From contig JAKBPI010000005.1 of assembly GCA_021829645.1 (NCBI GenBank), positions 338 through 64,337 on the forward strand: a DNA stretch of 64,000 nucleotides. The letters are read 5' to 3'. Shown piece by piece: positions 3,281-64,000 of this stretch. Source of the DNA: Actinomycetes bacterium (GTDB lineage: Bacteria; Actinomycetota; Acidimicrobiia; Acidimicrobiales; Bog-793). The position numbers and the translations under genes were made by a program. The notes under the pieces were generated by a model, which ran no database searches, was not told where the DNA came from, and saw only the letters and a program-made list of their open reading frames with translations. The stretch's first letter is position 1; each line of letters opens with the position of its first letter.

Positions 3281-4555
3281 ATGCAGAAATTGGTCGCCAT
3301 AGACTTGCCCGGTGGAGAACAATTCAGTCTTATAACTAAAAAGTGCTTTGAACACAACGACGCAGTCTTGCCATTGGATCAGCGGCTGTCACAAACGGCA
3401 AAAGAAAACCTTGTCAAGCTCTTCCGTCCTCATTGCATTGTGAGCTATCCGGGTAAAAAAAACCCCTTCGACTCCACCGGGTCAACTTTTCCCGAACACC
3501 AATCGGGCAACTGCTCCCTTAGAGATGCGGAAACGATTAATCTCGCTGACGGCGTGACGATGCAAGAGGGAGACGCCTTAGTTATGCCTACATCCGGGAC
3601 AACGGGGATACCAAAAGGCGTTGTCTTGACTCTTGAAGCCCTGCAGGCTTCCGCAGCCGCCACCAACGAGTACCTAAACGTCAATACTTCTTCCGACAAG
3701 TGGCTGTGTTGTCTGCCACTCGGTCACATAGGAGGATTTTCCGTTATGACAAGAGGTATCCTTACCTCAACTCCTACTGTGATTATTCCCAAATTTGAAA
3801 CGAAAACTGTTTTAGAATTGATAGAGCGGGAACACGTAACACTGACTTCTTTAGTGACAACCACTCTCAACATGCTGGGTGAAAATGCAAGCCTGCTGAG
3901 AAAAATTTTACTTGGAGGATCCAAAGCCCCAGAAAATACCCCTGACAACGTCGTCAAAACCTATGGGATGACAGAAACAGCCAGTGGGGTCGTATATGAC
4001 GGTAACATCTTAAGCGGGATGGAGATCGCCTTTAGAGATCCCGGCAACCAACTGTCTGCCCCCGACAAAACACTCCCCGAGGGAGAAATCTGCCTGAGAG
4101 GAAAAATGCTCTTCAGGAACTACAGATTGGCAGCAGAAGACCCCAAAATAAACGGCTGGTTCCCCACGGGTGATGCCGGACGTTTGAATAAAGAAGGCAG
4201 ATTGGAGGTGGACGGCCGCATTGCGGAAATGATTATCACCGGAGGAGAAAATGTATGGCCGTCACAGGTGGAAAATATCATCTCCAAAGCCAAGAATGTA
4301 TCAGAGGTAGTGGTAACCGGTCTGGATGATGAGAAATGGGGACAAAAGGTTGTGGCATTCATCGTTCCCATAGACAGAGGGGCGATACTTGAAACGGCAA
4401 AAATCAATGAAACGATCAAAGAGACTATAGGCCCGTGGGCAGTACCAAAAGATTTCTACCTCATGAATGAAATACCCAAAACGGCGATAGGCAAACCTAT
4501 CAAATCTCAACTACTAAAAGAAATGCACCATGCAGAACTACCGGCTAAGTTTTAG
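3281..4555 (+). CDS. menE: O-succinylbenzoate-CoA ligase (adenylate-forming enzyme)
   Basis: AMP-binding motif TSGTTGIPKG, plus YGMTET and a C-terminal GKP-K. I place the start at ATG 3281 (MQKLVAIDLPGG) because the first 186 codons of track ORF 2723..4555 run antisense to menB. Confidence 0.82.
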   Translation: MQKLVAIDLPGGEQFSLITKKCFEHNDAVLPLDQRLSQTAKENLVKLFRPHCIVSYPGKKNPFDSTGSTFPEHQSGNCSLRDAETINLADGVTMQEGDALVMPTSGTTGIPKGVVLTLEALQASAAATNEYLNVNTSSDKWLCCLPLGHIGGFSVMTRGILTSTPTVIIPKFETKTVLELIEREHVTLTSLVTTTLNMLGENASLLRKILLGGSKAPENTPDNVVKTYGMTETASGVVYDGNILSGMEIAFRDPGNQLSAPDKTLPEGEICLRGKMLFRNYRLAAEDPKINGWFPTGDAGRLNKEGRLEVDGRIAEMIITGGENVWPSQVENIISKAKNVSEVVVTGLDDEKWGQKVVAFIVPIDRGAILETAKINETIKETIGPWAVPKDFYLMNEIPKTAIGKPIKSQLLKEMHHAELPAKF

Positions 4556-11669: not shown

Positions 11670-12176
11670 TTAGTCTTTTTGATCACGCGACCACGGTGTT
11701 ACCATGACCTCTAAGACATGCGATTCAACACCTTCCAAGGCGAGTGCTTCCAGCACAAAGGACTTGTTGAACAAAATGTCAGCTAGATCCAAAAGGCCCG
11801 TAGTCAAGTCTAAGGCCGCTTCGTGAGTGATGAGTACGCTGTCGTCATCTGTATGAATAGAAGTATCCAACTCTTCAGAAACGTGGATAAGAGCTCGTGC
11901 CGCGTCTGACAGCAAGGGTTCTTCTTTCGTTACGGCTTGATAAGCAAGCGAACCGGCTACCGCACGCAACCCCGCTTGAATCCTGAGCGTAACGGGCAAT
12001 GACAATTTGACAATTTGTCCAAACCCGCATCTCTCAGGGATAATGTGGCCCATTTCACTTCCGGAAAAGTTACTGTCTTTACCGGAGCCGAAGTTGTTGG
12101 GGGTATTCTTTAACGCATTCGCCATATTCTTTATAAACGCGAAATCGTCATTTGATTCGGAGTTACCTTTAGTCAT
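11670..12176 (-). CDS. hypothetical protein
   Basis: 168-aa acidic ORF directly downstream of the SCO1664-family gene. Confidence 0.45.
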   Translation of the reverse strand: MTKGNSESNDDFAFIKNMANALKNTPNNFGSGKDSNFSGSEMGHIIPERCGFGQIVKLSLPVTLRIQAGLRAVAGSLAYQAVTKEEPLLSDAARALIHVSEELDTSIHTDDDSVLITHEAALDLTTGLLDLADILFNKSFVLEALALEGVESHVLEVMVTPWSRDQKD

Positions 12177-12232
12177 CTATAGCGCCCGCCTATTAGCCCT
12201 TGTCAACAATCTTAGCGCAATACACAATACTT

Positions 12233-12931
12233 TTACACAATTGGCCAAGGATAATAGAATCTTTCTTCTGGGGGCCGGGGGAAACATCCTGCTTTTACCA
12301 TGAGAGATGCTCGGTCAACGGTCGCCTCGATCTCTTCCTCACTCAAGTAAATGCTCATAAATTCCGGAGTGGACTCTGACAATAGCAGACAACCTTGCAT
12401 AATTTTTTCCGGTATTTCTTCTCCGATAAAATCCCACATGACGGTCCTTAGCTTTTCTTCTGAGTGAAAGCAGAGTCCGTGGTCTATGCCATATATCGCT
12501 CCGTCGTCCCCCAAAATAACATGACCGGCTTTTCTGTCGGCATTGTTGATCAATAAGTCAAATCCGCACAACATACGCAACAGAGGTATGTGCGTCTGCT
12601 CTTCCAAAAGCGTAAAGTAATTTACCGATACATCATTTGGAATGAACCTTTGTACGGAACCTACTCCGTATGGTCCGCTTACCTCTACGGTTTCCGGAAT
12701 CAAATCAATGCCTAAGTAGGACGAAAGGCGATAGGCAAGTACTTCTCGCTTATAAAGCCCCGGCGGAAAGTCAAAAAGTGGTTTTTCACCACTCAGAGGC
12801 TTATAGATCACCGGCGATGTAAACCCTTCGAAAGAAGCTTCGCAAAAGAGGGTTACATTGGAACTCACAGGAATAAAGCCCAACACCGAAAGTTCAGCTT
12901 GTACTAAAAAATCTACCCACCCCGTCTCCAT
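12233..12931 (-). CDS. SCO1664-family protein (PI3/PI4-kinase-like fold)
   Basis: Kinase-like catalytic stretch LLINNADRKAGHVILG...IDHGLCF. It is part of the actinobacterial trio with the next two genes. The ATG at 12931 avoids the 44-nt overlap created by track start 12988. Confidence 0.72.
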   Translation of the reverse strand: METGWVDFLVQAELSVLGFIPVSSNVTLFCEASFEGFTSPVIYKPLSGEKPLFDFPPGLYKREVLAYRLSSYLGIDLIPETVEVSGPYGVGSVQRFIPNDVSVNYFTLLEEQTHIPLLRMLCGFDLLINNADRKAGHVILGDDGAIYGIDHGLCFHSEEKLRTVMWDFIGEEIPEKIMQGCLLLSESTPEFMSIYLSEEEIEATVDRASLMVKAGCFPRPPEERFYYPWPIV

Positions 12932-12944
12932 GAAAAGCCTTGTT

Positions 12945-13508
12945 TCAGCGTGTAGGTGGTTTGTGTCCGTTGGTTCTGGGACAGGCATGACCCCTTGGAT
13001 CCAGCGGATAGCCGCACAGCGGACACGGTGGTCTTCCGGCTTTGGCCAGCACGGTGCCCATAATGGCCAAAGCTGCTGCCTGCTCTCTACTTAAAAACAG
13101 CTGCGCCGCCCTGTCCATATCTATAGCCTCAGAAAGCACTTCCCAGCCCGATGACTCATCGAGACTCGACATAAAATCCAGGTTTTCACTGGAAAATTCG
13201 ATGTCTCCAAGGATCAGAAGAACGCCGTCCAAAGCAACGTCATAGGCCACAGCTATAGTACCTACGACAAAATTTATGTCGTCAGTCGGTCGAAATGATG
13301 CTGTTTCGTCAGGTAAGTGACCCGGTCTGGGTGCATCGTCCAGAATGTTGCCAATCTGATCACAGAGTAAGACTACTTGCTGCTTCTCCATTTTATAGGT
13401 ATACAGCGTGTCAGAGCCTTCACATTGGAGGTAAAATGTTCTTTCTCCTACCGGACCGACTGTGGCAAAAATAATCCAATTCGGTATGATCGGGGACATA
13501 TTAGTCAT
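12945..13508 (-). CDS. DUF3090-family protein
   Basis: 187 aa with the characteristic C-terminal GRPPCPLCGYPLDPRGHACPRTNGH zinc-ribbon-like motif. Confidence 0.72.
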   Translation of the reverse strand: MTNMSPIIPNWIIFATVGPVGERTFYLQCEGSDTLYTYKMEKQQVVLLCDQIGNILDDAPRPGHLPDETASFRPTDDINFVVGTIAVAYDVALDGVLLILGDIEFSSENLDFMSSLDESSGWEVLSEAIDMDRAAQLFLSREQAAALAIMGTVLAKAGRPPCPLCGYPLDPRGHACPRTNGHKPPTR

Positions 13509-54616: not shown

Positions 54617-56263
54617 CTAGTGATGCCCTATCCCCAATTGAACGGCTTTTACCACCAGAAGAATTACTGCAGCAAGCAAATAACCTCGCATACCGAACAT
54701 GGCTACTTTTTTACTCCTTGACCAATGCGGACGCTCCAGTAGGGAAAGGGGCGGCATACGCCAAGTGAGTTTATTTTCGTTGTGAGTATCTCCTTCCACA
54801 ATGACCATTGCTGATTTAATTCTGGCACGCAAACCTACAACAAGGGCAGTGAGAACACTACCCACGATTGTGACTGCCATTGAATACATAAGTATCGATA
54901 CGTTTATATTAGGAAATATGGTAGTCGCCATGAGGACCAATGACATAGCTATTAAAATAGCTACTATAACAGCTGCCACAAGGTTCAGCCACAACTTATT
55001 CACCCATGGCCCAAGTACCGCAGTATCATTACATAGTAAAAGCAAGAATACTGTAGCACTTGGCAAAAGAACACCCGCTAATGCCTGCGCTGAAGTTGTA
55101 ATAAGTCCAAGAGGAGCGTGGGGAATGAGCACAATACCAGCGGCAGCTATGACCAAGAGCGTGAATATAGCATAAAACTGTTTGGCATCTTTGAATCCCC
55201 TATGCAAGCTATGCTTAATACCGAAAACATCGCCAAAGGCATAAGATGTAGACAGTGTGACGGCAGCGGCTCCTATGATGGATGCATTCAGGAGCACTAT
55301 AGAAAATAAGGGACCGGCACTATTACCCAAATAGTGTTCGAGGCCAGTTGCCGTTGCACCGGCATTGACAAACTGTCCAGCGAGTTTTGTGTGCAAAAAT
55401 GCAAAAGCCGTGACGACGATGATAAGCGTAGCTGCAAAAACTGTTACCAAAGAACCTAATACTGTGTCAACTCTCTCGTAGTTTATCCAACGAGGGATAA
55501 TTCTTTTATCAACGATGTTAGACTGCTGGAAAAACAGCTGCCAAGGTGCTACTGTCGTTCCTACGATTGCGATAATGAACAGAATCGAAGTCGAGTTAAT
55601 CCCGCCTTTTACACCGGGAACCACAAATCCGCGGATAATGGGTCCGACGTGTGGGTGCGCAAAAATAGCCAGTGGAATCACTAAAAAATTGGCTACTACA
55701 AAAATGAGCATAAAGCGTTCCCACCGCCTGAAACTCCCGGATGCGGTCATCGCTATCAGTGCCAAGGCAGCTATAGGCACAGAGATGTAAATACTTACTC
55801 CAAAGTAGCCGAGCGAGAGACTGATGCCAATAAACTCAGTAACAATTGTTAAAAAATTCAGCAGGAAAAGATCCCCCACAGAAAACGCTCCCCAGAATTT
55901 GCCAAATCTTTCGTTTATCAGGCGTGCATGCCCAACTCCGGTTACTGCTCCAAGCCTTACGACCATTTCTTGATTTACCACCAAGACCGGTATGAGAAGA
56001 GGCAGGACCCACAGCAGGCTAAGCCCGAAATTTTGTCCAGCCTGTGCATATGTCGCCACTCCTCCGGCGTCATTATCGCCAACCATAACTATGAGACCGG
56101 GCCCCACGATCGCTAGAAGAGTCAGCAACTTTTTTAGCCAAGTACGTCTTTCACTAGAATCGCCTATTCTTATTGTCCCGAGAGCACCTTGAATGTCACC
56201 TATATGAGCGGTATCCAAAACAGCGGTTTCGTTTTGAGATTCACCAGAGTTGATTGTTGACAT
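54617..56263 (-). CDS. NRAMP/SLC11-family transporter with NRMT-type binding-site residues
   Basis: 548 aa, polytopic. TM1 reads GPGLIVMVGDNDAGGVATY and TM6 reads IVGTTVAPWQLFFQQS, versus canonical DPGN and GATVMPH. A strong GGAGG sits before the ATG. Confidence 0.88.
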   Translation of the reverse strand: MSTINSGESQNETAVLDTAHIGDIQGALGTIRIGDSSERRTWLKKLLTLLAIVGPGLIVMVGDNDAGGVATYAQAGQNFGLSLLWVLPLLIPVLVVNQEMVVRLGAVTGVGHARLINERFGKFWGAFSVGDLFLLNFLTIVTEFIGISLSLGYFGVSIYISVPIAALALIAMTASGSFRRWERFMLIFVVANFLVIPLAIFAHPHVGPIIRGFVVPGVKGGINSTSILFIIAIVGTTVAPWQLFFQQSNIVDKRIIPRWINYERVDTVLGSLVTVFAATLIIVVTAFAFLHTKLAGQFVNAGATATGLEHYLGNSAGPLFSIVLLNASIIGAAAVTLSTSYAFGDVFGIKHSLHRGFKDAKQFYAIFTLLVIAAAGIVLIPHAPLGLITTSAQALAGVLLPSATVFLLLLCNDTAVLGPWVNKLWLNLVAAVIVAILIAMSLVLMATTIFPNINVSILMYSMAVTIVGSVLTALVVGLRARIKSAMVIVEGDTHNENKLTWRMPPLSLLERPHWSRSKKVAMFGMRGYLLAAVILLVVKAVQLGIGHH

Positions 56264-56468
56264 ATTGCCCTCCTTCCGGATAACAGAAATATTCCTGAAA
56301 GAAATCCTTTATTATGACTCAGCAACAAGGCGTTGCCGAATAAGTTTAGACTAAAAAATACCAATAACAGCAGCAATTACCTATATGGCTGAGAAGTGTT
56401 AACTTATTATTATACTAAGTTTGAAATAATTTTACCTGAAAAGAGGTGGTGACCTTTACTCAAAACTA

Positions 56469-57785
56469 TCAGTGGTCATCTGCAGCCGGTAGACCAAGAT
56501 TGCGACGAAGAGACGCTGAGTTCAAAAGGAGTTCCAGAACATCATCAAACGTGACGACACCTATGAGCTTTTGTGACTCATCCACGACAGGCAGGGCCTG
56601 TAAATTAAAATCAGACATAGTATGAAGTATCATCCCCACGTCTCCATCCGGTAGAATCGTGACGGGTTCCTGCTCGCTTGAGTCACCTAGCAGGCTTTCT
56701 TGCTCTGCCTGTAGCACGGAAACCAACGGAAGCATTCCGGTCAGTATTCCGTCTTCATCTGCTATATAAACATAGCTGAGCACTTCCGGTGACAGATCAC
56801 TGTTTCTAATCATATCCAGTACGGTACCGACCGTATCATGAGCTTTTGCCTGCAAGAAATCGGGATTCATTAAGCCCCCTGCTGTTTCAGGGTGGTAATG
56901 GAGTAGATTTCGTACTTTATCACGCTGATCCGCAGGCAAAGCTTCCAACAGAGGAAGTCTCTGATCCTGATCAAGGTCAGCAATCAAATCGGCGGCATCG
57001 TCCGGAGCCATTCGGGAAAGAACTCGCGCTGCCTCTATTTCGGATTTTGATTCCATGAACTCACGTTGATGTTCCGGGTCAAGCTCTTCAAAGACATCTG
57101 CTTCTAAGTCCCTGTCATGGCCCACGGCTTCTATAATTTCTTCCCCTTCTTCGTGTGATGCAGCTTCCACCAAGTCGGCTATCTGAGCTGGGCGCAGTCT
57201 TGCCAAAGCCCTGTAAGGTAGCCTGAGTCTTGCCGTTGGTACATGACCTACAAACGGTTCGACATCCGACCAATCGATCAGGGTATTGCCGGTACGTTTT
57301 CGCTTTGTCAATTTTCTGTAGAGATAACCAATTGGAGACGAAGCCACCGGTTCGGCACCAAGCAGTACATAACCTTGACCGTAATGACCCATTTCTATAT
57401 CTCTTGCTTTAAGGAGCCGTGCTTTGCTCAGATGGATCAGGTGTCTGCCCGCTACGTCGCGGGCCAACAAAAGTTCGCCTGGCCTGCGTTCAAATTGCTT
57501 TAAATTCACGGAGTCCCGGGCAAGCTCAACTCTGCTTTCCTTTATTTCACGTACTCTTTCAATGGGAATAAAGAGCTCACGATGGCCTATTTGACCCACA
57601 ATTCCGGCAATTGGAGGGTGCGTTTCGCCGCCTGGTCTTACTACTATATCTTTGACTTTACCAAGCTTGTCACCTTGTGAATCTACCAGATGACTTCCCA
57701 CCAAGCGAGAAAGCTTGATACGAGGTCCGGAAATTTCAACAATGTTTTGCTTAGATGCCTTGGGCTGTAAAGTCGTCACACTCAT
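56469..57785 (-). CDS. PRC-barrel + MgtE N-domain + CBS-pair protein lacking a membrane pore
   Basis: PRC-like LVGSHLVDSQGDKLGKVKDIVV and MgtE_N-like MAPDDAADLIADL...LLHYHPETAGGLMNPDF, followed by two CBS motifs. The ORF ends at 438 aa with no TM helices. Confidence 0.8.
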   Translation of the reverse strand: MSVTTLQPKASKQNIVEISGPRIKLSRLVGSHLVDSQGDKLGKVKDIVVRPGGETHPPIAGIVGQIGHRELFIPIERVREIKESRVELARDSVNLKQFERRPGELLLARDVAGRHLIHLSKARLLKARDIEMGHYGQGYVLLGAEPVASSPIGYLYRKLTKRKRTGNTLIDWSDVEPFVGHVPTARLRLPYRALARLRPAQIADLVEAASHEEGEEIIEAVGHDRDLEADVFEELDPEHQREFMESKSEIEAARVLSRMAPDDAADLIADLDQDQRLPLLEALPADQRDKVRNLLHYHPETAGGLMNPDFLQAKAHDTVGTVLDMIRNSDLSPEVLSYVYIADEDGILTGMLPLVSVLQAEQESLLGDSSEQEPVTILPDGDVGMILHTMSDFNLQALPVVDESQKLIGVVTFDDVLELLLNSASLRRNLGLPAADDH

Positions 57786-57852
57786 ATATTAGACGATTGC
57801 ATAAAAATTTTCATGTCTAGACAGAGTTTCGTTTCAAGGCTAGACTTATCAT

Positions 57853-58911
57853 ATGCGCTACAAAACTTTAGGAAGCACCGGCATGAAGGTATCCGAGTAC
57901 TGTCTCGGAGCAATGATGTTCGGCAAATGGGGAAATCAGGATACGGCAGACTGTATAAGAATTATAGACTACGCCTTAGATCACGGCATAAATTTCATTG
58001 ACACGGCAGACGTATACTCCGGAGGAGAATCTGAAGAGATAGTCGGTAAGGCAATTGCAGGAAAAAGAGATGCTATTATCCTGGCCACTAAAGTCCATGG
58101 CTCCATGGGGGATGATATCAACGAAGGTGGAAATTCCAGAAGATGGATTACCCGCGAAGTCGAAGCGAGTTTGAAAAGACTCGGTACCGACTACATAGAC
58201 CTTTACCAAATACATAGGCCGGATCCGACAACAGATATCGCTGAAACTCTTTCCGCTTTGACAGATTTAGTTCACCAAGGTAAAATACGTTCTTTTGGAT
58301 CCTCCACATTTGATCCAGAACTCATTGTAGAAGCACAGTGGATAGCTCAGCAACGTCATTTAGAACGCTTTATATGTGAACAGCCGCCTTATTCGTTACT
58401 CACAAGAGGCATAGAACGTTCGATACTTCCTACATGCCAAAAATACAACATGGGTGCAATAGTCTGGTCGCCGCTGGCAGGAGGATGGCTGAGCGGTAAA
58501 TATACCAAATTCGAAGACATAGATCTCTCACAAGGAAGAGCTGCCAGGCTGCCAGCCAGATTTGATCCCTCTATTCCGGGAAACAAACTCAAGTTAGAAA
58601 AAGTCTCTGCCCTTGCTTCCCTGGCCGTTCAGGCAGCCATGCCTCTTACACACATGGCCGTGAGCTTCACTCTTTCGCATCCCGGGGTTACGGCAGCCAT
58701 AATCGGCCCGCGTACCATGGATCAACTTGAAGACATCCTACGAGGTGTCGATCTAGAATTGGACGATTCACTCTTGGACGAAATTGATAAAGTGGTAGCC
58801 CCCGGAGAAAACCTCAACGAAGCAGACTCCGGCTGGAAGCCTCCGTCGCTGACAAATCCTGGGTTGAGAAGAAAAAATCCAAACTTCTCAGCGTCAAAAA
58901 GTTACTTTTAA
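57853..58911 (+). CDS. aldo/keto reductase
   Basis: Motifs INFIDTADVYSGGESEEIVG and IDLYQIHRPD, with an AKR-like fold throughout. Confidence 0.92.
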   Translation: MRYKTLGSTGMKVSEYCLGAMMFGKWGNQDTADCIRIIDYALDHGINFIDTADVYSGGESEEIVGKAIAGKRDAIILATKVHGSMGDDINEGGNSRRWITREVEASLKRLGTDYIDLYQIHRPDPTTDIAETLSALTDLVHQGKIRSFGSSTFDPELIVEAQWIAQQRHLERFICEQPPYSLLTRGIERSILPTCQKYNMGAIVWSPLAGGWLSGKYTKFEDIDLSQGRAARLPARFDPSIPGNKLKLEKVSALASLAVQAAMPLTHMAVSFTLSHPGVTAAIIGPRTMDQLEDILRGVDLELDDSLLDEIDKVVAPGENLNEADSGWKPPSLTNPGLRRKNPNFSASKSYF

Positions 58912-58944: not shown

Positions 58945-59331
58945 ATGGGAGTATTAGTTTGCGCCGGAGCGGTTATGAGTTGTTCTTTCGGGATGGCACC
59001 ATCCGTTTTGGATGTGCTTCCAGATACGGGTGTCGTTTGTCCCACACCGGCGGCCACCATTATGGACTTTGTACCCATGCTCAATATCATGCCATTTGGA
59101 ATGTGCATCAGTGAAGCCAACCCTGAGGTGATAGCAGCCACAGCAGCAGCCCTGGGAGTATTGACCCCTATGCCCTGTATCCCAGTTACCGTTGCCCCGT
59201 GGGTACCCGGAGCACCCACTGTTTTGTTGGCCGGGCAACCGGCACTGGACGACCTGTCAACCTGTATGTGCGCATGGGGAGGCGTGATAACCATTGAAGA
59301 TCCGGGGCAATTCCAAACTACTGTTGAGTAG
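58945..59331 (+). CDS. DUF4280 (PAAR-like) domain protein
   Basis: 128 aa with the pattern CSFG..PS.L.V...........A...D..P..NI.PFG.C.S..NP.V............P.PC.P....PW.PG...V...G.PAL...S.C.C.WGG.I.I.DPGQ. AAGGAG lies 9 nt upstream of the ATG. Confidence 0.85.
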   Translation: MGVLVCAGAVMSCSFGMAPSVLDVLPDTGVVCPTPAATIMDFVPMLNIMPFGMCISEANPEVIAATAAALGVLTPMPCIPVTVAPWVPGAPTVLLAGQPALDDLSTCMCAWGGVITIEDPGQFQTTVE

Positions 59332-59377: not shown

Positions 59378-60871
59378 TTAGCCTCCGGACAACAACTGCG
59401 CCGTACCACCAAAGTATACGTTTGTGCCACAGGCACTTGTACCTCCGCCCGAACAGCTTACGGTTATGACAAATGTCGACCCCTGAGGTAAAACCAGTGG
59501 GGTACTAAGGGGGAAATCCTGAGAAGTTAGCTGACTAAGGGACATCTCGAAAAAATACTTGGGTGATGGTGCACCTGGGGGCTGAATACCGACCTGCACG
59601 GTACTGCCATTGACCTGTGTTAGATTCTCAATGATGATATCTGTCAAGTCCAATTCATTACCGGTCGGTATAACAAACAAACCTTGCGATACCTGTCCGG
59701 GGGCTGCGGCCACCGAAATTGCATTTGAGTAGGGACCGGGTGTCAATTGACTACCGGCAGCCGTAGGGGGAGCGGTTGTGGTTGTAGTGGAAGAAGTTAC
59801 AGATGTAGTCGTTGTGGTGGTGGAAGTAGTAGTTGTCGGTGCCGCGGTAGTAGTTGTCGGTGCCGCGGTAGTAGTTGTCGGTGCCGCGGTAGTAGTTGTC
59901 GGTGCCGCGGTTGTGGTTGTAGTGGTGGAAGTAGTAGTTGTGGTGGTGGAAGTAGTAGTTGTGGTAGAAGTTGCCTTACTGGTTGCTATTGATGCGGCGA
60001 TAGATGCTTTTCTGGTGGCTTCACTGGCTTGTTTGCTCGCTTTAGTAGCCGTTTTGGAAAGCTGATTGAGCTTCATTTGATTATTTATGTTCTGATGTTG
60101 CTGATTTGCCAGTTGGGGTTGGATGGCGGCAACTGCGGCATTTTTGATCTCATTTCGAACCAGTAGCCACACTCCCAGAACCACCAAAGCCGCCAACGCC
60201 AAAAATGACCCCTTGGGTAAAACCGGTTTTTGAAGCATAGTAGCGTCCAAGACAATTGGTTCAACGTTGTCTGCCGATACCGTTACCTTAAACCTGGAAT
60301 TTCTCTGCGGTCCGCGCAAATAGCGTCTTCTTGGCAAAATACGTAAATTGGTAAATACAGTAGTGCCTGGCAACAATTCCAACTGACGCGGTTTAGGCAA
60401 TATCTGTAAAGTATCCGATTGATCGCGCCCTGAAACCGTAGCCATAACAGGTACGTTGCTAAAAGAGTCTACGGCCAAACCGAGTTTACCGCGCCTTCTG
60501 CCGATCGTGACTTCCGGAATCAATTCTGCTTTCAGATCCCGGAATTCACCTACCTCGAGCAGACCTTCTTCTGTAACACTTCCGTTCGGATTATTAACAG
60601 CCACTACACGAATACCAAAGGGAATTTTACCAGGCGGAACGTACCATACCTTAGGCGGAGCCCAAGTCACGACCGTCTCTCTACTCGTATTAGGGAAAAG
60701 TGAAATAACTTCTGATTCCACATTTGCCCATTGTGCGGTATCGCCTACTACCTCTACGTGAAACTGTTCGACTATAGAACTGACATTATGTACTTGAACC
60801 TGACAGGAAACGACACCGCCAGGTTCTACGAATAAATTTTGTTCACTTAACAATAAAACTGCGGAAGCCAT
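59378..60871 (-). CDS. bitopic membrane protein: N-terminal tandem CARDB/NEW3-like Ig-fold region, one TM helix, coiled/Thr-rich stalk, C-terminal beta-rich domain
   Basis: 497 aa with no signal peptide. The TM helix is FLALAALVVLGVWLLV near residue 240, with a (TTTTAAP)n linker. The start lies 2 nt after the stop of the giant upstream gene. Confidence 0.7.
   Translation of the reverse strand: MASAVLLLSEQNLFVEPGGVVSCQVQVHNVSSIVEQFHVEVVGDTAQWANVESEVISLFPNTSRETVVTWAPPKVWYVPPGKIPFGIRVVAVNNPNGSVTEEGLLEVGEFRDLKAELIPEVTIGRRRGKLGLAVDSFSNVPVMATVSGRDQSDTLQILPKPRQLELLPGTTVFTNLRILPRRRYLRGPQRNSRFKVTVSADNVEPIVLDATMLQKPVLPKGSFLALAALVVLGVWLLVRNEIKNAAVAAIQPQLANQQHQNINNQMKLNQLSKTATKASKQASEATRKASIAASIATSKATSTTTTTSTTTTTTSTTTTTTAAPTTTTAAPTTTTAAPTTTTAAPTTTTSTTTTTTSVTSSTTTTTAPPTAAGSQLTPGPYSNAISVAAAPGQVSQGLFVIPTGNELDLTDIIIENLTQVNGSTVQVGIQPPGAPSPKYFFEMSLSQLTSQDFPLSTPLVLPQGSTFVITVSCSGGGTSACGTNVYFGGTAQLLSGG
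59826..59912. repeat. 21-bp in-frame tandem repeat (about 4 copies) encoding AAPTTTT
   Basis: Unit GGTGCCGCGGTAGTAGTTGTC is repeated head to tail. Confidence 0.9.
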
Positions 60872-60873
60872 AC

Positions 60874-63800
60874 TTATCCCGATTCAGGTTCAAGTGGATA
60901 TTTTATAATTTGTTGACCATTTTGAGCGAAACCAGTTAATACTTCTTCAATTGAATTAAGCCCCGTAAGAGGTTGATTATTTGGCCCGCTTACCTGCGTA
61001 CTCGAATCGACATACAATGTCGAGGCCCCTCCTCCGGTAATTACTACATCGTTGTTAGGTGTAACAGCAGTAGGATCGCCGGGAGTATTGACGATCCAAG
61101 TAAAGTAGTATGCCGTACCGGTGCCTCCGATCATGGTATCATAACCCACACCAGTGTAGTATTGCGTACCTGCCACGGGAACACCTGCCTCAAATGTCGT
61201 TTGCCCGTTACCTCCTATCAACATATCATGACCGGCTGAAGATGCTTGCAAAAGGTCTTTACCATTTAAAGCTATCAGAGTTTGATCTGCACTGCTAGCA
61301 ATCAAAATGTCGTTACCGCTTTCAGTACTGACTATCGTTGAGACTCCAGACAACGTATCGATAGCGGGGTTATTAGCTCCCCCGACCCCCCATTTATCAA
61401 CCGTACCATTAGCATTGAGCGTAATTCCGTCGCCGCTTTTAGCATCACTGCTGGTATCGATGGGCATGTTTTGATAGTCAACGGTACATGATGACCCGCT
61501 TGCACACACGATATTGTTATCACCTGTTCCGGGTATGATAAGAGCACTACCGGCAGCAAAAATGTTGTCGTTGTTGTTGTTTGCCACTATAATGTCAGAG
61601 AATTTTGTACCAATGACATTGTTGATAGATATCGAAATAGTCTCAGTAACGCCGCTTTGGAGCCAACCTCCTGTTATTCCAGCCTTCACTTGAACTGGGG
61701 CCCCTCCGGAAGGTGGCGTAACAGCCGTCGAAGACGAACTGAGATTCACATCCACCGAAGTAGGTGAATCGGCAAAATCAAGCCAGTTTGTCCCGTTTTC
61801 GCTAGACTTAAGAGTTAGTTGGCCAGACCCAGGGGCAAAAAAGTTATTCCCTGCACCACCAATCAAAACGTTATTTCCATTGCCTGCTACCAACGTCTCG
61901 TTACCGATCGCTCCTGAAGCGTCGACGGTATAATTTCCTGTCCCCGCTGATGCGTAATCGGAGGAAGTAGAAGTAGCCGTATTGAGTGAAATGGTTCCAC
62001 TTCCACTTCCACCTACCTCAATACCTCCGTATACCGATCCAACTATATTTTCCACGGGACTAGCAACTATCATTACTTCCCCAAGATTTCCTCCCACTTC
62101 TTGAAAATCAGAATTAGAGAGATTGAGCGAAGTGGGTGATTTGGCTAGCGACAAATTAATGGTCATGTCACCGCCGCCGCCATTGATAACTGCCGTACCG
62201 TTGTACGGAGTTAGGTAAAATATGGTAGCTCCTCCACCTCCCATTAAATACTCAGAACCAGTACCTTCATATATTGTCGTCGGAGCATTGGCCCCTATAA
62301 CGTTAGATACATTACTTATTGAGGTTACCTCTGTGCCAGAAGCAAGTCCGCTGACCTGAGTTGTCGCACCAGGCTCCAGGTTGACAATCAAACCGCCCGT
62401 AGATACTGATGCATTCTGAAAACTCACCGTATTGACTCCCAAACCACCGTTAATACTCCAAGTGCCTGGACCGACAATAAAATTGTCGTCATAATTAGTA
62501 CCTACAAGAGAGGTAATCCCGGTAAAAGAATCTTTACTGGTAGTCGAAGAACAGCCGTAGCCAGACAAGTTCACGATACCGCTACTACCCATACAAAAAG
62601 TGACCCCGGCACTGGCGTTGGAGAAGTTTAGCGTAGAACCGGAATCGCCCGTGAATGAATAGCCGGGAGTGGAGTCGGCCATAAAAATACTGTTCGGAGC
62701 GCCGGCAGACAAACTAAAAATACCGATTACTGTTCCCAGTGAAGTACCGCTGACATTTAGCGTTACGCCCACACTGTCTGTGCCTGTAAGCGTAAAGGTC
62801 GAAGCGCTGTTAGGACTTGTTAGGATGTCACTCGAATTGCCTGTATAGACACCCAGGACATCAGAGTACGACAACACCTGATTTGAGCCTAACTCAACAG
62901 AACCAGTACCAGGAGCAGTGGATAATATCAAATTTAGAGTGGAGGATCCTGTCAAGGCGAGAGATGAGGAAGCTCCGTTTCCGACAAAGACCACGGGAGA
63001 AGAGCCATCTGTAGAGAATGCAACCGTTCCGCTTGTAGGGGCAGAAAATGAAGTAAAGCCTGTCAAAGTCAGTGCAAATGTTGTATTGAGCGACATGGCA
63101 GAAGTAGCGTAATCCGCGTTCAATGTAGCGGCACCTAAATCAGGAAGATCTACCGCTATAGAAGAATTCCCTTCAATCGTACCGTACTGACTGATGCTAA
63201 TCGTAATCGCAGGAGTAGCAGAAGTAATACTGAGTGAAGCCGTTCCGGTTGCTCCAACAGACAATGTGCCTGCGTAGCCGGAAGGAAGAGATAACGCATC
63301 CGTACTACCGGAACCGTTGAGGACGATTTGCAAGAACCCGCTAAATGAAACTGTCGAGGTGGGACCGAGTGTTACCGTGCCTGATCCGGGTGTAGCGGAT
63401 AATTGGACGGTCAGATTATCAACAATGATCTTGTTGTTTGTTCCGCCGCCTCCGGAAAGTGTAGTGAATCCGGTGAAGTTTTCTGCCGGGCTGTAACCGA
63501 CACTTACTCCGGAAAGAGAAACACCGAGAGCAAGCCCTGCACTATAGGAAGCCGTCAGACTTCCTCCGGATGTATCCGTTACCGTTTCAAAATTACTGAA
63601 TGTGTAAGGAGTTGTAGAAACAGTAACCGTAGCGGTACTCGTTCCGAGTGTAACTGCCGAAGAAGTCGGCAGTGACAATGTATTGGTACTTGCATTAGCA
63701 GAAGTTCCGCCTCCGGAAAGTGTAGTGAATCCGGTGAAGTTTTCTGCCGGGCTGTAACCGACACTTACTCCGGAAAGAGAAACACCGAGAGCAAGCCCTG

Positions 63801-64000
63801 CACTATAGGAAGCCGTCAGACTTCCTCCGGATGTATCCGTTACCGTTTCAAAATTACTGAATGTGTAAGGAGTTGTAGAAACAGTAACCGTAGCGGTACT
63901 CGTTCCGAGTGTAACTGCCGAAGAAGTCGGCAGTGACAATGTATTGGTACTTGCATTAGCAGAAGTTCCGCCTCCGGAAAGTGTAGTGAATCCGGTGAAG
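60874..64000 (-). CDS. giant secreted repeat protein with RTX-like (hemolysin-type Ca-binding-like) modules; 5' end outside the window
   Basis: The frame stays open to position 64000. The track start at 63939 is a TTG (Leu) inside a repeat (..NTLSLPTSS..). Modules resemble NVIGTKFSDIIVANNNNDNIFAAGSALIIPGTGDNNI, LVAGNGNNVLIGGAGNNFF and LIGGNGQTTF. The sequence is Ser/Thr/Gly-rich. Confidence 0.8.
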   Translation of the reverse strand, partial: FTGFTTLSGGGTSANASTNTLSLPTSSAVTLGTSTATVTVSTTPYTFSNFETVTDTSGGSLTASYSAGLALGVSLSGVSVGYSPAENFTGFTTLSGGGTSANASTNTLSLPTSSAVTLGTSTATVTVSTTPYTFSNFETVTDTSGGSLTASYSAGLALGVSLSGVSVGYSPAENFTGFTTLSGGGGTNNKIIVDNLTVQLSATPGSGTVTLGPTSTVSFSGFLQIVLNGSGSTDALSLPSGYAGTLSVGATGTASLSITSATPAITISISQYGTIEGNSSIAVDLPDLGAATLNADYATSAMSLNTTFALTLTGFTSFSAPTSGTVAFSTDGSSPVVFVGNGASSSLALTGSSTLNLILSTAPGTGSVELGSNQVLSYSDVLGVYTGNSSDILTSPNSASTFTLTGTDSVGVTLNVSGTSLGTVIGIFSLSAGAPNSIFMADSTPGYSFTGDSGSTLNFSNASAGVTFCMGSSGIVNLSGYGCSSTTSKDSFTGITSLVGTNYDDNFIVGPGTWSINGGLGVNTVSFQNASVSTGGLIVNLEPGATTQVSGLASGTEVTSISNVSNVIGANAPTTIYEGTGSEYLMGGGGATIFYLTPYNGTAVINGGGGDMTINLSLAKSPTSLNLSNSDFQEVGGNLGEVMIVASPVENIVGSVYGGIEVGGSGSGTISLNTATSTSSDYASAGTGNYTVDASGAIGNETLVAGNGNNVLIGGAGNNFFAPGSGQLTLKSSENGTNWLDFADSPTSVDVNLSSSSTAVTPPSGGAPVQVKAGITGGWLQSGVTETISISINNVIGTKFSDIIVANNNNDNIFAAGSALIIPGTGDNNIVCASGSSCTVDYQNMPIDTSSDAKSGDGITLNANGTVDKWGVGGANNPAIDTLSGVSTIVSTESGNDILIASSADQTLIALNGKDLLQASSAGHDMLIGGNGQTTFEAGVPVAGTQYYTGVGYDTMIGGTGTAYYFTWIVNTPGDPTAVTPNNDVVITGGGASTLYVDSSTQVSGPNNQPLTGLNSIEEVLTGFAQNGQQIIKYPLEPESG
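63442..64000. repeat. 261-bp (87-codon) tandem repeat, copies identical by eye, at least 2.1 copies, running off the window
   Basis: TCCGGAAAGTGTAGTGAATCCGGTGAAG recurs at 63451, 63712 and 63973. The intervening sequence is identical on visual comparison. Confidence 0.9.

Follow-up and report, generated by a model that had tools for sequence, protein, structure and literature searches.

The 64,000-nucleotide stretch analysed here (the window; positions 338-64337 of contig JAKBPI010000005.1, C23, in a 2.1 Mb assembly of 55 contigs) ends in two minus-strand genes, one encoding a giant repeat protein and the other a 497-amino-acid (aa) membrane protein. Judged by gene content, this pair is the distal end of a complete Streptomyces-type, class-IId-like contractile injection system (CIS) locus. 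Homology and domain layout place the 497-aa protein in the Sco4256-4258 family, as a new member whose C-terminal domain is unannotated, and we are confident both of this family placement and of the location of its gene in a CIS locus. Our best overall explanation, which blends that assignment with a mechanism in which the 497-aa protein would be a resident membrane partner of the injection particle, has a probability of roughly 0.65; the mechanism, taken alone, is held with less assurance, at somewhat better than even. The host is a monoderm actinobacterium, as a first-pass annotation of the window had already proposed; it is known from an uncultured Acidimicrobiia metagenome-assembled genome (MAG) from acid mine drainage. 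The features of the pair, in window coordinates, are as follows.

59378..60871, minus strand: 497-aa Sco4256-family CIS-associated bitopic membrane protein (assigned by homology), open reading frame (ORF) with ATG start
60227..60871, minus strand: its N-terminal tandem Ig (PapD/ASH/MSP-like) head, residues 1-215, predicted cytoplasmic; AlphaFold2 mean predicted local distance difference test score (pLDDT) ~97
60155..60211, minus strand: single transmembrane (TM) helix, residues ~221-239, from a hydropathy scan; model helix 222-293
59792..60154, minus strand: helical Gln/Lys/Ala stalk (240-293) and disordered Thr-rich linker (297-360) in the AlphaFold2 model; tandem repeats at 59805-59962
59393..59785, minus strand: beta-sandwich C-terminal domain of ~130 aa, residues 363-493, with a Cys pair; pLDDT ~93, predicted extracytoplasmic
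60874..64000, minus strand: giant Ser/Thr/Gly-rich repeat protein, 3' 1041 codons, open at the window edge
63446..64000, minus strand: perfect 261-bp (87-codon) tandem repeats in the giant gene (Tandem Repeats Finder: period 261, 2.1 copies, 100% matches)

The first-pass annotation could assign the pairing to no described system and saw no export genes. A lack of contractile or export genes holds for the window only: the contig extends 21.4 kb beyond the window edge and the CIS locus continues there, which also makes the pairing assignable. Pfam matches past the edge comprised Pvc16_N, AAA+WHD, eCIS_core, Phage_sheath_1/1C and gp19 (twice), together with CIS_tube+LysM, Phage_base_V/GPD, gp25, Baseplate_J and Tail_P2_I. 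The genes form an array of 17 co-directional genes on the minus strand, with intergenic gaps of -4 to 236 nt, in the following order from upstream to downstream.

Genes 1-5: cis16 cap (Pvc16_N); AAA ATPase; eCIS-core protein; sheath; tube (gp19)
Genes 6-9: 171-aa protein; 875-aa protein; second tube; LysM tube-initiator (CIS_tube+LysM)
Genes 10-14: VgrG-like spike; gp25; baseplate J; P2-I; CisA homologue (560 aa)
Genes 15-17: 1033-aa secreted protein; giant secreted protein; 497-aa membrane protein

The two-gene operon proposed earlier therefore gives way to three translationally coupled genes at the end of this array. The 1033-aa gene overlaps the start of the giant gene by 4 nt, and the stop codon of the giant gene (60874-60876) is separated by 2 nt from the ATG of the 497-aa gene (60869-60871). 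The junction reads GGGA TAA gt ATG GCT, confirming the spacing and the tight coupling already noted, and the GGGA ahead of the 497-aa start is a possible ribosome-binding site. Ahead of the 1033-aa gene lies a ~130-nt AT-rich gap with promoter-like hexamers, so the last three genes may have a promoter of their own; a terminator-like site, sought on the minus strand downstream of the 497-aa gene, was not found. The CIS encoded at this locus is probably cytoplasmic.

In the Streptomyces coelicolor CIS cluster, Sco4256-4258 have a common N-terminus, one TM helix and a variable C-terminus, and have been named CIS-associated effectors (Casu et al. 2023, PMC10066040). Their first domain has been likened to periplasmic pilus chaperones, with a PapD-like fold detected by HHpred, and homologues were found in further Actinobacteria and in Cyanobacteria and Chloroflexi, in clusters of class IId, but seldom in other places; the same study applied the label 'putative toxin' (Vladimirov et al. 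2023, PMC10020575). SCO4256 is also listed among the membrane glycoproteins in an O-glycoproteome study of S. coelicolor (PMC6593405). The 497-aa protein shares these family features, with a PapD/Ig N-terminal domain, a TM helix directly after it, a C-terminus of the variable kind and a gene inside a class-IId-type CIS cluster. By BLASTP it was 32% identical over 247 aa (E 3e-39) to a protein of Streptomyces sp. NBC_00704 encoded at the Sco4256 position. That genome carries two family members between the sheath gene and cis15/cis16, annotated 'hydrolase' and 'ricin-type beta-trefoil lectin', and the match was to the 'hydrolase', the first of the two.

A word-indexed search with the N-terminal head returned only 4 proteins, whereas an exhaustive hmmsearch with the N-terminal 245 residues revealed the family, with 4116 cluster representatives, of which 510 reached E<=1e-30. 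The majority were 400-460 aa long with the domain at the N-terminus, and every named one was a 'hypothetical protein'. Members have in common the order head, TM helix, stalk and C-terminal domain, and differ in the C-terminal module, which may be a Cys-paired sandwich, a ricin lectin, a Kelch domain or CarboxypepD_reg. Compared with Sco4256-4258, the protein described here is alike in its double-Ig PapD/ASH-like head, single TM helix, variable C-terminus, place inside a class-IId-type cluster and co-occurrence with the sheath. It differs in that its long Thr-rich stalk carries, as C-terminal domain, a Cys-paired beta-sandwich without annotation rather than a ricin lectin or toxin-like module, and in that its gene is a single copy (three in S. 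coelicolor) at the baseplate end, after two large Sec-exported proteins and facing a PAAR-like gene, whereas in Streptomyces the gene lies between the sheath gene and cis15. As to whether the membrane protein matches a well-characterised family, a point raised in the first-pass annotation, the Sco4256-4258 family answers to this in part, being described, though with no more than candidate mechanisms.

The architecture of the 497-aa protein was examined in an AlphaFold2 model built from a 40-sequence alignment (mean pLDDT 83.8), which superseded an unusable single-sequence model (pLDDT 46.6). Model and hydropathy agree with the layout described earlier, namely no signal peptide, two beta-sandwiches, a TM helix, a stalk, a Thr-rich linker and a C-terminal domain. 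In the model the head consists of two Ig-like beta-sandwiches, residues 1-108 and 112-215 (pLDDT ~97), and residues 4-8, where no signal peptide was found, make up the first strand of the folded head. Foldseek matched the model to hydin, the CEP192 SPD-2 domain and the pilus chaperone FimC, and homologues of the protein matched Pfam Cep192_D3, HYDIN_VesB Ig, ASH and MSP. The C-terminal domain is conserved in the family alignment. It matched no Pfam family in a scan at E<=5, a profile search against PDB sequences gave nothing meaningful, and in the Foldseek search with the full model the N-terminal Ig pair dominated the matches, so that no fold class could be given to it. No LPXTG sortase signal was present at either C-terminus (...KYPLEPESG in the giant protein, ...AQLLSGG in the 497-aa protein), and neither protein of the pair had a Pfam or NCBIfam match to an anti-sigma domain. 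The DNA of the Thr-rich linker (59805-59962) is made of 21/42/63-bp tandem repeats, and the membrane protein of the sister species is 500 aa long rather than 497; the linker probably varies in length by repeat slippage. Cysteines after the TM helix numbered 2 or 4 in 39 of the 40 family members, versus 0-2 ahead of it. We infer a topology with the N-terminus inside and the C-terminus outside, as expected of a resident membrane partner, because the head is predicted to be folded and lacks a signal peptide, the cysteines after the TM helix are even in number, the linker is Thr-rich and SCO4256 is listed as a glycoprotein.

The distribution of the family follows that of the CIS. Among 41 relatives, the 6 with a strong homologue of the 497-aa protein were exactly the 6 with a close sheath gene. 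In a sample of 401 genomes from across the phylum, the head domain was found in 28 and a sheath gene in 33; a sheath of the close lineage (E<1e-140) was present in 24, and 23 of these carried the head domain. Where one contig holds both, sheath and head-family genes are 0.3-24 kb apart. A search for related loci with a 3-sequence alignment returned 5 loci; Micrococcales MAGs carry a family gene 4.5 kb from cis16, and in another MAG the family gene comes directly after DUF4280, beside baseplate genes.

The pair itself is conserved elsewhere, a point on which the first-pass annotation had made its idea depend. Giant and 497-aa genes are kept together in L003, L012-L014, L023 and L018/L019, with membrane-protein identities of 50-57% in other genera and down to 35%. 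The order of giant gene followed by Sco4256-like gene is retained in four other genera of the family and also in the lineage with the 35%-identical membrane protein, in which the neighbour is 2202 aa long and 26% identical in its C-terminal region (E 2e-8); the L019 genome of that lineage also has a sheath gene at 70% identity. In L023 the giant gene is preceded by a gene for a homologue of the 1033-aa protein, and in L018, with the 35%-identity membrane protein, by a fragment of such a gene. Homologues of the giant protein were confined to the 6 CIS-positive genomes of the 41 relatives, with none in the 35 CIS-negative ones, and only one weak match was obtained among 400 other genomes of the phylum sample. 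Judged by this distribution, the giant and 1033-aa proteins are lineage-specific additions, present only in CIS-positive Acidimicrobiia relatives.

The giant gene had been described as an ORF of more than 1040 codons, still open at the window edge, and the minus-strand ORF at 60874..63999 (1041 aa) bears this out. Extension along the contig, as had been suggested, recovered the N-terminus: the gene starts at window-equivalent 64724 (C23 65061) and encodes a Sec-type signal peptide (MKNTFKILAKCIAFIGLVGILWLYISKGHEAFA, ahead of STG, with an AxA site). A scaffold gap of 10 Ns lies at window-equivalent 64009-64018, nine bases past the window edge. The 261-bp array ends in this gap, so the number of copies in this assembly is provisional and the frame across the gap arbitrary; in the sister genome the array comprises two full copies. 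An interrupted giant ORF was ruled out, since the break is the gap inside identical repeats and the sister orthologue (L001, ~1232 aa, GTG start at L001 6296, same signal peptide) is intact. The giant protein and three orthologues all carry a Sec signal peptide, conserved in three lineages, and in the orthologues it is followed by a similar Cys-containing first module.

The earlier description of the giant protein as RTX-like (repeats in toxin) stands only in part. It is supported by one Pfam HemolysinCabind stretch (26.8 bits, cut-off 23) and by a match to the RTX block of CyaA in the PDB (E 6e-8), but the protein has no strict GGxGxDxUx nonapeptide (0 strict, 4 relaxed), and orthologues of 2202 and 2530 aa in other lineages had no Pfam match at all, RTX included. 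Its composition is rich in Ser, Gly, Thr and Asn, with 1% Lys+Arg and 3.8% Asp. On these profile matches, its RTX-likeness is marginal. Against CyaA and the other RTX substrates of type I secretion systems, the likeness is that ~90-150 residues match the beta-roll repeat profile; unlike them, the giant protein lacks canonical nonapeptides, is low in Asp, belongs to a monoderm host and carries an N-terminal Sec signal peptide rather than a C-terminal type I signal. We rejected a type I secretion substrate on account of the signal peptide, and no exporter genes (ATP-binding cassette, membrane fusion protein or TolC) were found in the 26-kb array. Since the giant protein has a Sec signal peptide, as do its orthologues, a type I exporter is unneeded, and the role of exporter once suggested for the membrane protein falls away; the outer domain may still serve the giant protein as an anchor or sensor, the other roles suggested. 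The paradox of an RTX protein in a monoderm bacterium is thereby removed, the giant protein being Sec-exported and only marginally RTX-like.

Further neighbours of the pair bear on its role.

C23 65058-68159 (window-equivalent 64721-67822), minus strand: 1033-aa Sec-secreted protein, no Pfam match
C23 68251-69933 (window-equivalent 67914-69596), minus strand: 560-aa CisA homologue, from homology and domain layout
58945..59331, plus strand: DUF4280 PAAR-like spike-tip gene, 128 aa, full-length (Pfam DUF4280 E 1.8e-33, weak NCBIfam IglG match)

The 1033-aa protein has a Thr/Pro linker and ~7 C-terminal copies of the repeat GYW(L/I)xSSxGxVYxFGNAxNYG. CisA (Sco4242) is a membrane protein needed for CIS firing in S. 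coelicolor (Casu et al. 2025, PMC12237407). In the 560-aa protein a zinc ribbon at the N-terminus is joined by a long disordered region of acidic character, another Cys-rich ribbon, a TM helix and an F5/8-type-C/NADase_transloc domain, and this Cys-rich, TM and sugar-binding layout fits the published Sco4242. It was 26% identical over 293 aa (E 6e-10) to the product of the Streptomyces gene directly after cis12, the CisA position, with the N-terminal zinc ribbon matching in addition. We considered whether the 497-aa protein might itself be CisA. Like CisA it is bitopic and encoded in the CIS cluster, with a predicted cytoplasmic N-terminus and extracytoplasmic C-terminal domain, and is a candidate link between particle and membrane; however, the N-terminus of CisA is largely unstructured, a Cys-rich segment that binds zinc precedes its TM helix and its C-terminal domain is of a sugar-binding kind, whereas the head of the 497-aa protein is a folded Ig structure and a Cys-rich segment is absent. 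The CisA homologue is encoded separately by the 560-aa gene, and the 497-aa protein is therefore not CisA.

In the mechanism that we propose, the 497-aa protein would lie in the cytoplasmic membrane with its double-Ig head inside the cytoplasm, alongside the CIS particles, and its Cys-paired C-terminal domain would stand outside on the helical and Thr-rich stalk, which is probably O-glycosylated. Rather than being soluble cargo, it would be a partner in the envelope that links particle and membrane, and the giant and 1033-aa proteins, exported by Sec, would be lineage-specific surface partners of the module. The translational coupling of its gene to those of two large proteins, both Sec-exported and both inherited only where the CIS is, fits an envelope-spanning role better than that of luminal cargo. 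To our knowledge, a variant with a Sec-exported giant protein and a 1033-aa partner has not been described previously. The locus bears on how the cytoplasmic CIS of Gram-positive bacteria make contact with the membrane and how their firing is decided, questions on which the mechanisms of CisA and of Sco4256-4258 have yet to settle. It brings a CisA-like protein, a Sco4256-like protein and a PAAR-like tip together in deep-branching, unicellular-type, acidophilic Acidimicrobiia, and the giant and 1033-aa proteins offer concrete candidates for outer partners.

Several observations weigh against a resident membrane partner or narrow the evidence for it. The positive-inside rule is ambiguous, with 1.5 Lys+Arg in the 15 flanking residues on the N side of the TM helix versus 2.2 on the C side. 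The homology link runs to a positional and architectural equivalent in NBC_00704, not to SCO4256 itself. Five genomes of one family (f7: G186, G290, G303, G329 and G429) have the head family at E 1e-44 to 1e-52 and no sheath gene, and the head family is therefore not strictly bound to the CIS. The same C-terminal domain occurs without a giant neighbour in family members L020 and L030, and contact between the giant protein and this domain, which may occur, is purely putative. The sequence of the region was found only in DNA metagenomes (mine drainage, tailings, sediment and wastewater), with no RNA run containing it. Finally, the published model holds Sco4256-4258 to be cargo, on the evidence of an empty lumen in the triple mutant and toxicity in E. 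coli (PMC10066040), and Sco4256 peptides were detected in purified particles (Vladimirov et al. 2023, PMC10020575).

This cargo model is a serious rival, although we consider it unlikely here. Under it the 497-aa protein would be loaded either inside the lumen of the tube or together with the DUF4280 tip on the spike, and firing would drive its TM helix into the producer's own membrane, with damage and death as the outcome; the giant protein would be an unrelated surface protein sharing the island. The arrangement of genes offers some support. The PAAR-like DUF4280 gene adjoins a family member in several lineages (L003, L012-L014, L020 and L023), and in type VI secretion system loci PAAR genes are often found beside their effectors. 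The triple mutant, besides having a mostly empty lumen, phenocopies a CIS deletion (Casu et al. 2023, PMC10066040), but that phenotype is equally expected of a docking or trigger partner. Toxicity and a need for these proteins in CIS-mediated cell death and for luminal density have been reported for S. coelicolor only. The presence of Sco4256 in purified particles (Vladimirov et al. 2023, PMC10020575) speaks for the cargo model, and the listing of SCO4256 as a membrane glycoprotein (PMC6593405) against it. The C-terminal modules of the family are, moreover, of typically exofacial kinds (ricin lectins, Kelch propellers, CarboxypepD_reg arrays and Cys-paired sandwiches), and a 497-aa protein with three folded beta domains would probably fit a tube lumen poorly.

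It is conceivable, though more doubtful still, that the resident partner does more than dock the particle, and that the last three genes together encode one trans-envelope trigger of the cytoplasmic CIS in these Acidimicrobiia. The cytoplasmic double-Ig head would grip the particle at the baseplate or at the DUF4280 spike tip, the outer Cys-paired domain would hold two Sec-exported proteins, the giant beta-solenoid and the repeat protein of 1033 aa, which would form a fibre or sensor on the cell surface, and an event at the surface, such as contact, wall damage or acid or metal stress, would be relayed to firing. If this were true, to call the Sco4256 family 'effectors' would be mistaken in this clade, and its proteins would supply the outside-in signalling arm so far missing from cytoplasmic CIS.

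A very improbable alternative makes the giant protein the tail fibre or receptor-binding protein of an extracellular CIS (eCIS), with the membrane protein as its assembly or anchoring factor. The giant gene does lie downstream of the baseplate wedge genes, the usual fibre position, and its product is long, repetitive and beta-rich. However, a cleavable Sec signal peptide was present in every lineage examined, so the giant protein would be exported separately and could not be mounted on a baseplate assembled in the cytoplasm; the slot directly after cis12 is occupied by the CisA homologue; the sheath shares 60-66% identity with sheaths of Streptomyces-type clusters, which are reported to be without fibres; and the giant protein has no similarity to known fibre domains. 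An eCIS tail fibre of the Afp13/Pvc13 type was rejected on the signal peptide, the absence of a fibre domain and the occupied cis12-adjacent slot. There is equally little to be said for an independent adhesin and anchor pair lying beside the CIS by chance, for which the possible separate promoter in the AT-rich gap and the very narrow distribution of the giant family in the phylum could be cited, since the membrane-protein family is tied to the CIS across the phylum, giant homologues are absent from all 35 CIS-negative relatives, and the DUF4280 spike-tip gene lies beyond the pair, which therefore sits inside the locus and not beside it.

The DUF4280 gene is convergent with the 497-aa gene, with 46 bp between them in the window's genus. 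The locus resembles those with DUF4280/PAAR-like tips of the Francisella IglG type in having a full-length DUF4280 neighbour, beside a Sco4256-like gene in several lineages, and departs from them in that the gene is here ~13 kb from the VgrG-like spike gene and on the opposite strand. In high-GC relatives an extra gene of ~370 aa, with no Pfam match on record, lies between the Sco4256-like gene and DUF4280. It is present in four other genera of the family and lost from the window's genus, and its positions are as follows.

L003 2725-3846: ~370-aa extra gene
L012 10245-11351, minus strand: ~370-aa extra gene
L013 9108-10259, minus strand: ~370-aa extra gene
L014 ~3385-4443: ~370-aa extra gene
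L023 ~12175-13084: ~370-aa extra gene

Within the array, the 875-aa gene (C23 76064-78691, window-equivalent 75727-78354, minus strand) sits between the 171-aa gene and the second tube gene, and encodes a Pro/Ser/Gln-rich protein without a Pfam match. By analogy, this protein and the eCIS_core (DUF4157) protein may be the counterpart of Sle1/Sle2, a tape-measure-like effector pair of S. lividans (PMC13277306).

Members of a more distant branch of the head family are very large and come in tandem arrays of 2-3, with open frames of 766-3919 aa (G120:C21, G363:C51, G399:C2, G410:C3 and G421:C1 at 2.41 Mb). In 4 of the 5 genomes these arrays lie 9-17 kb from a second-type sheath gene (~50% identity), and in G410 the sheath is on another contig. 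The distant word-search matches P0003 and P0004 have CarboxypepD_reg-type domains after the head. On the other side of DUF4280, genes for an aldo-keto reductase, an MgtE-N/CBS protein, NRAMP, GT4 and a methyltransferase (window 54617-58911) are syntenic beside DUF4280 across genera (L012, L015 and L016), indicating that the CIS island occupies a conserved chromosomal site. Between genera the GC content ranges from ~46% up to high GC.

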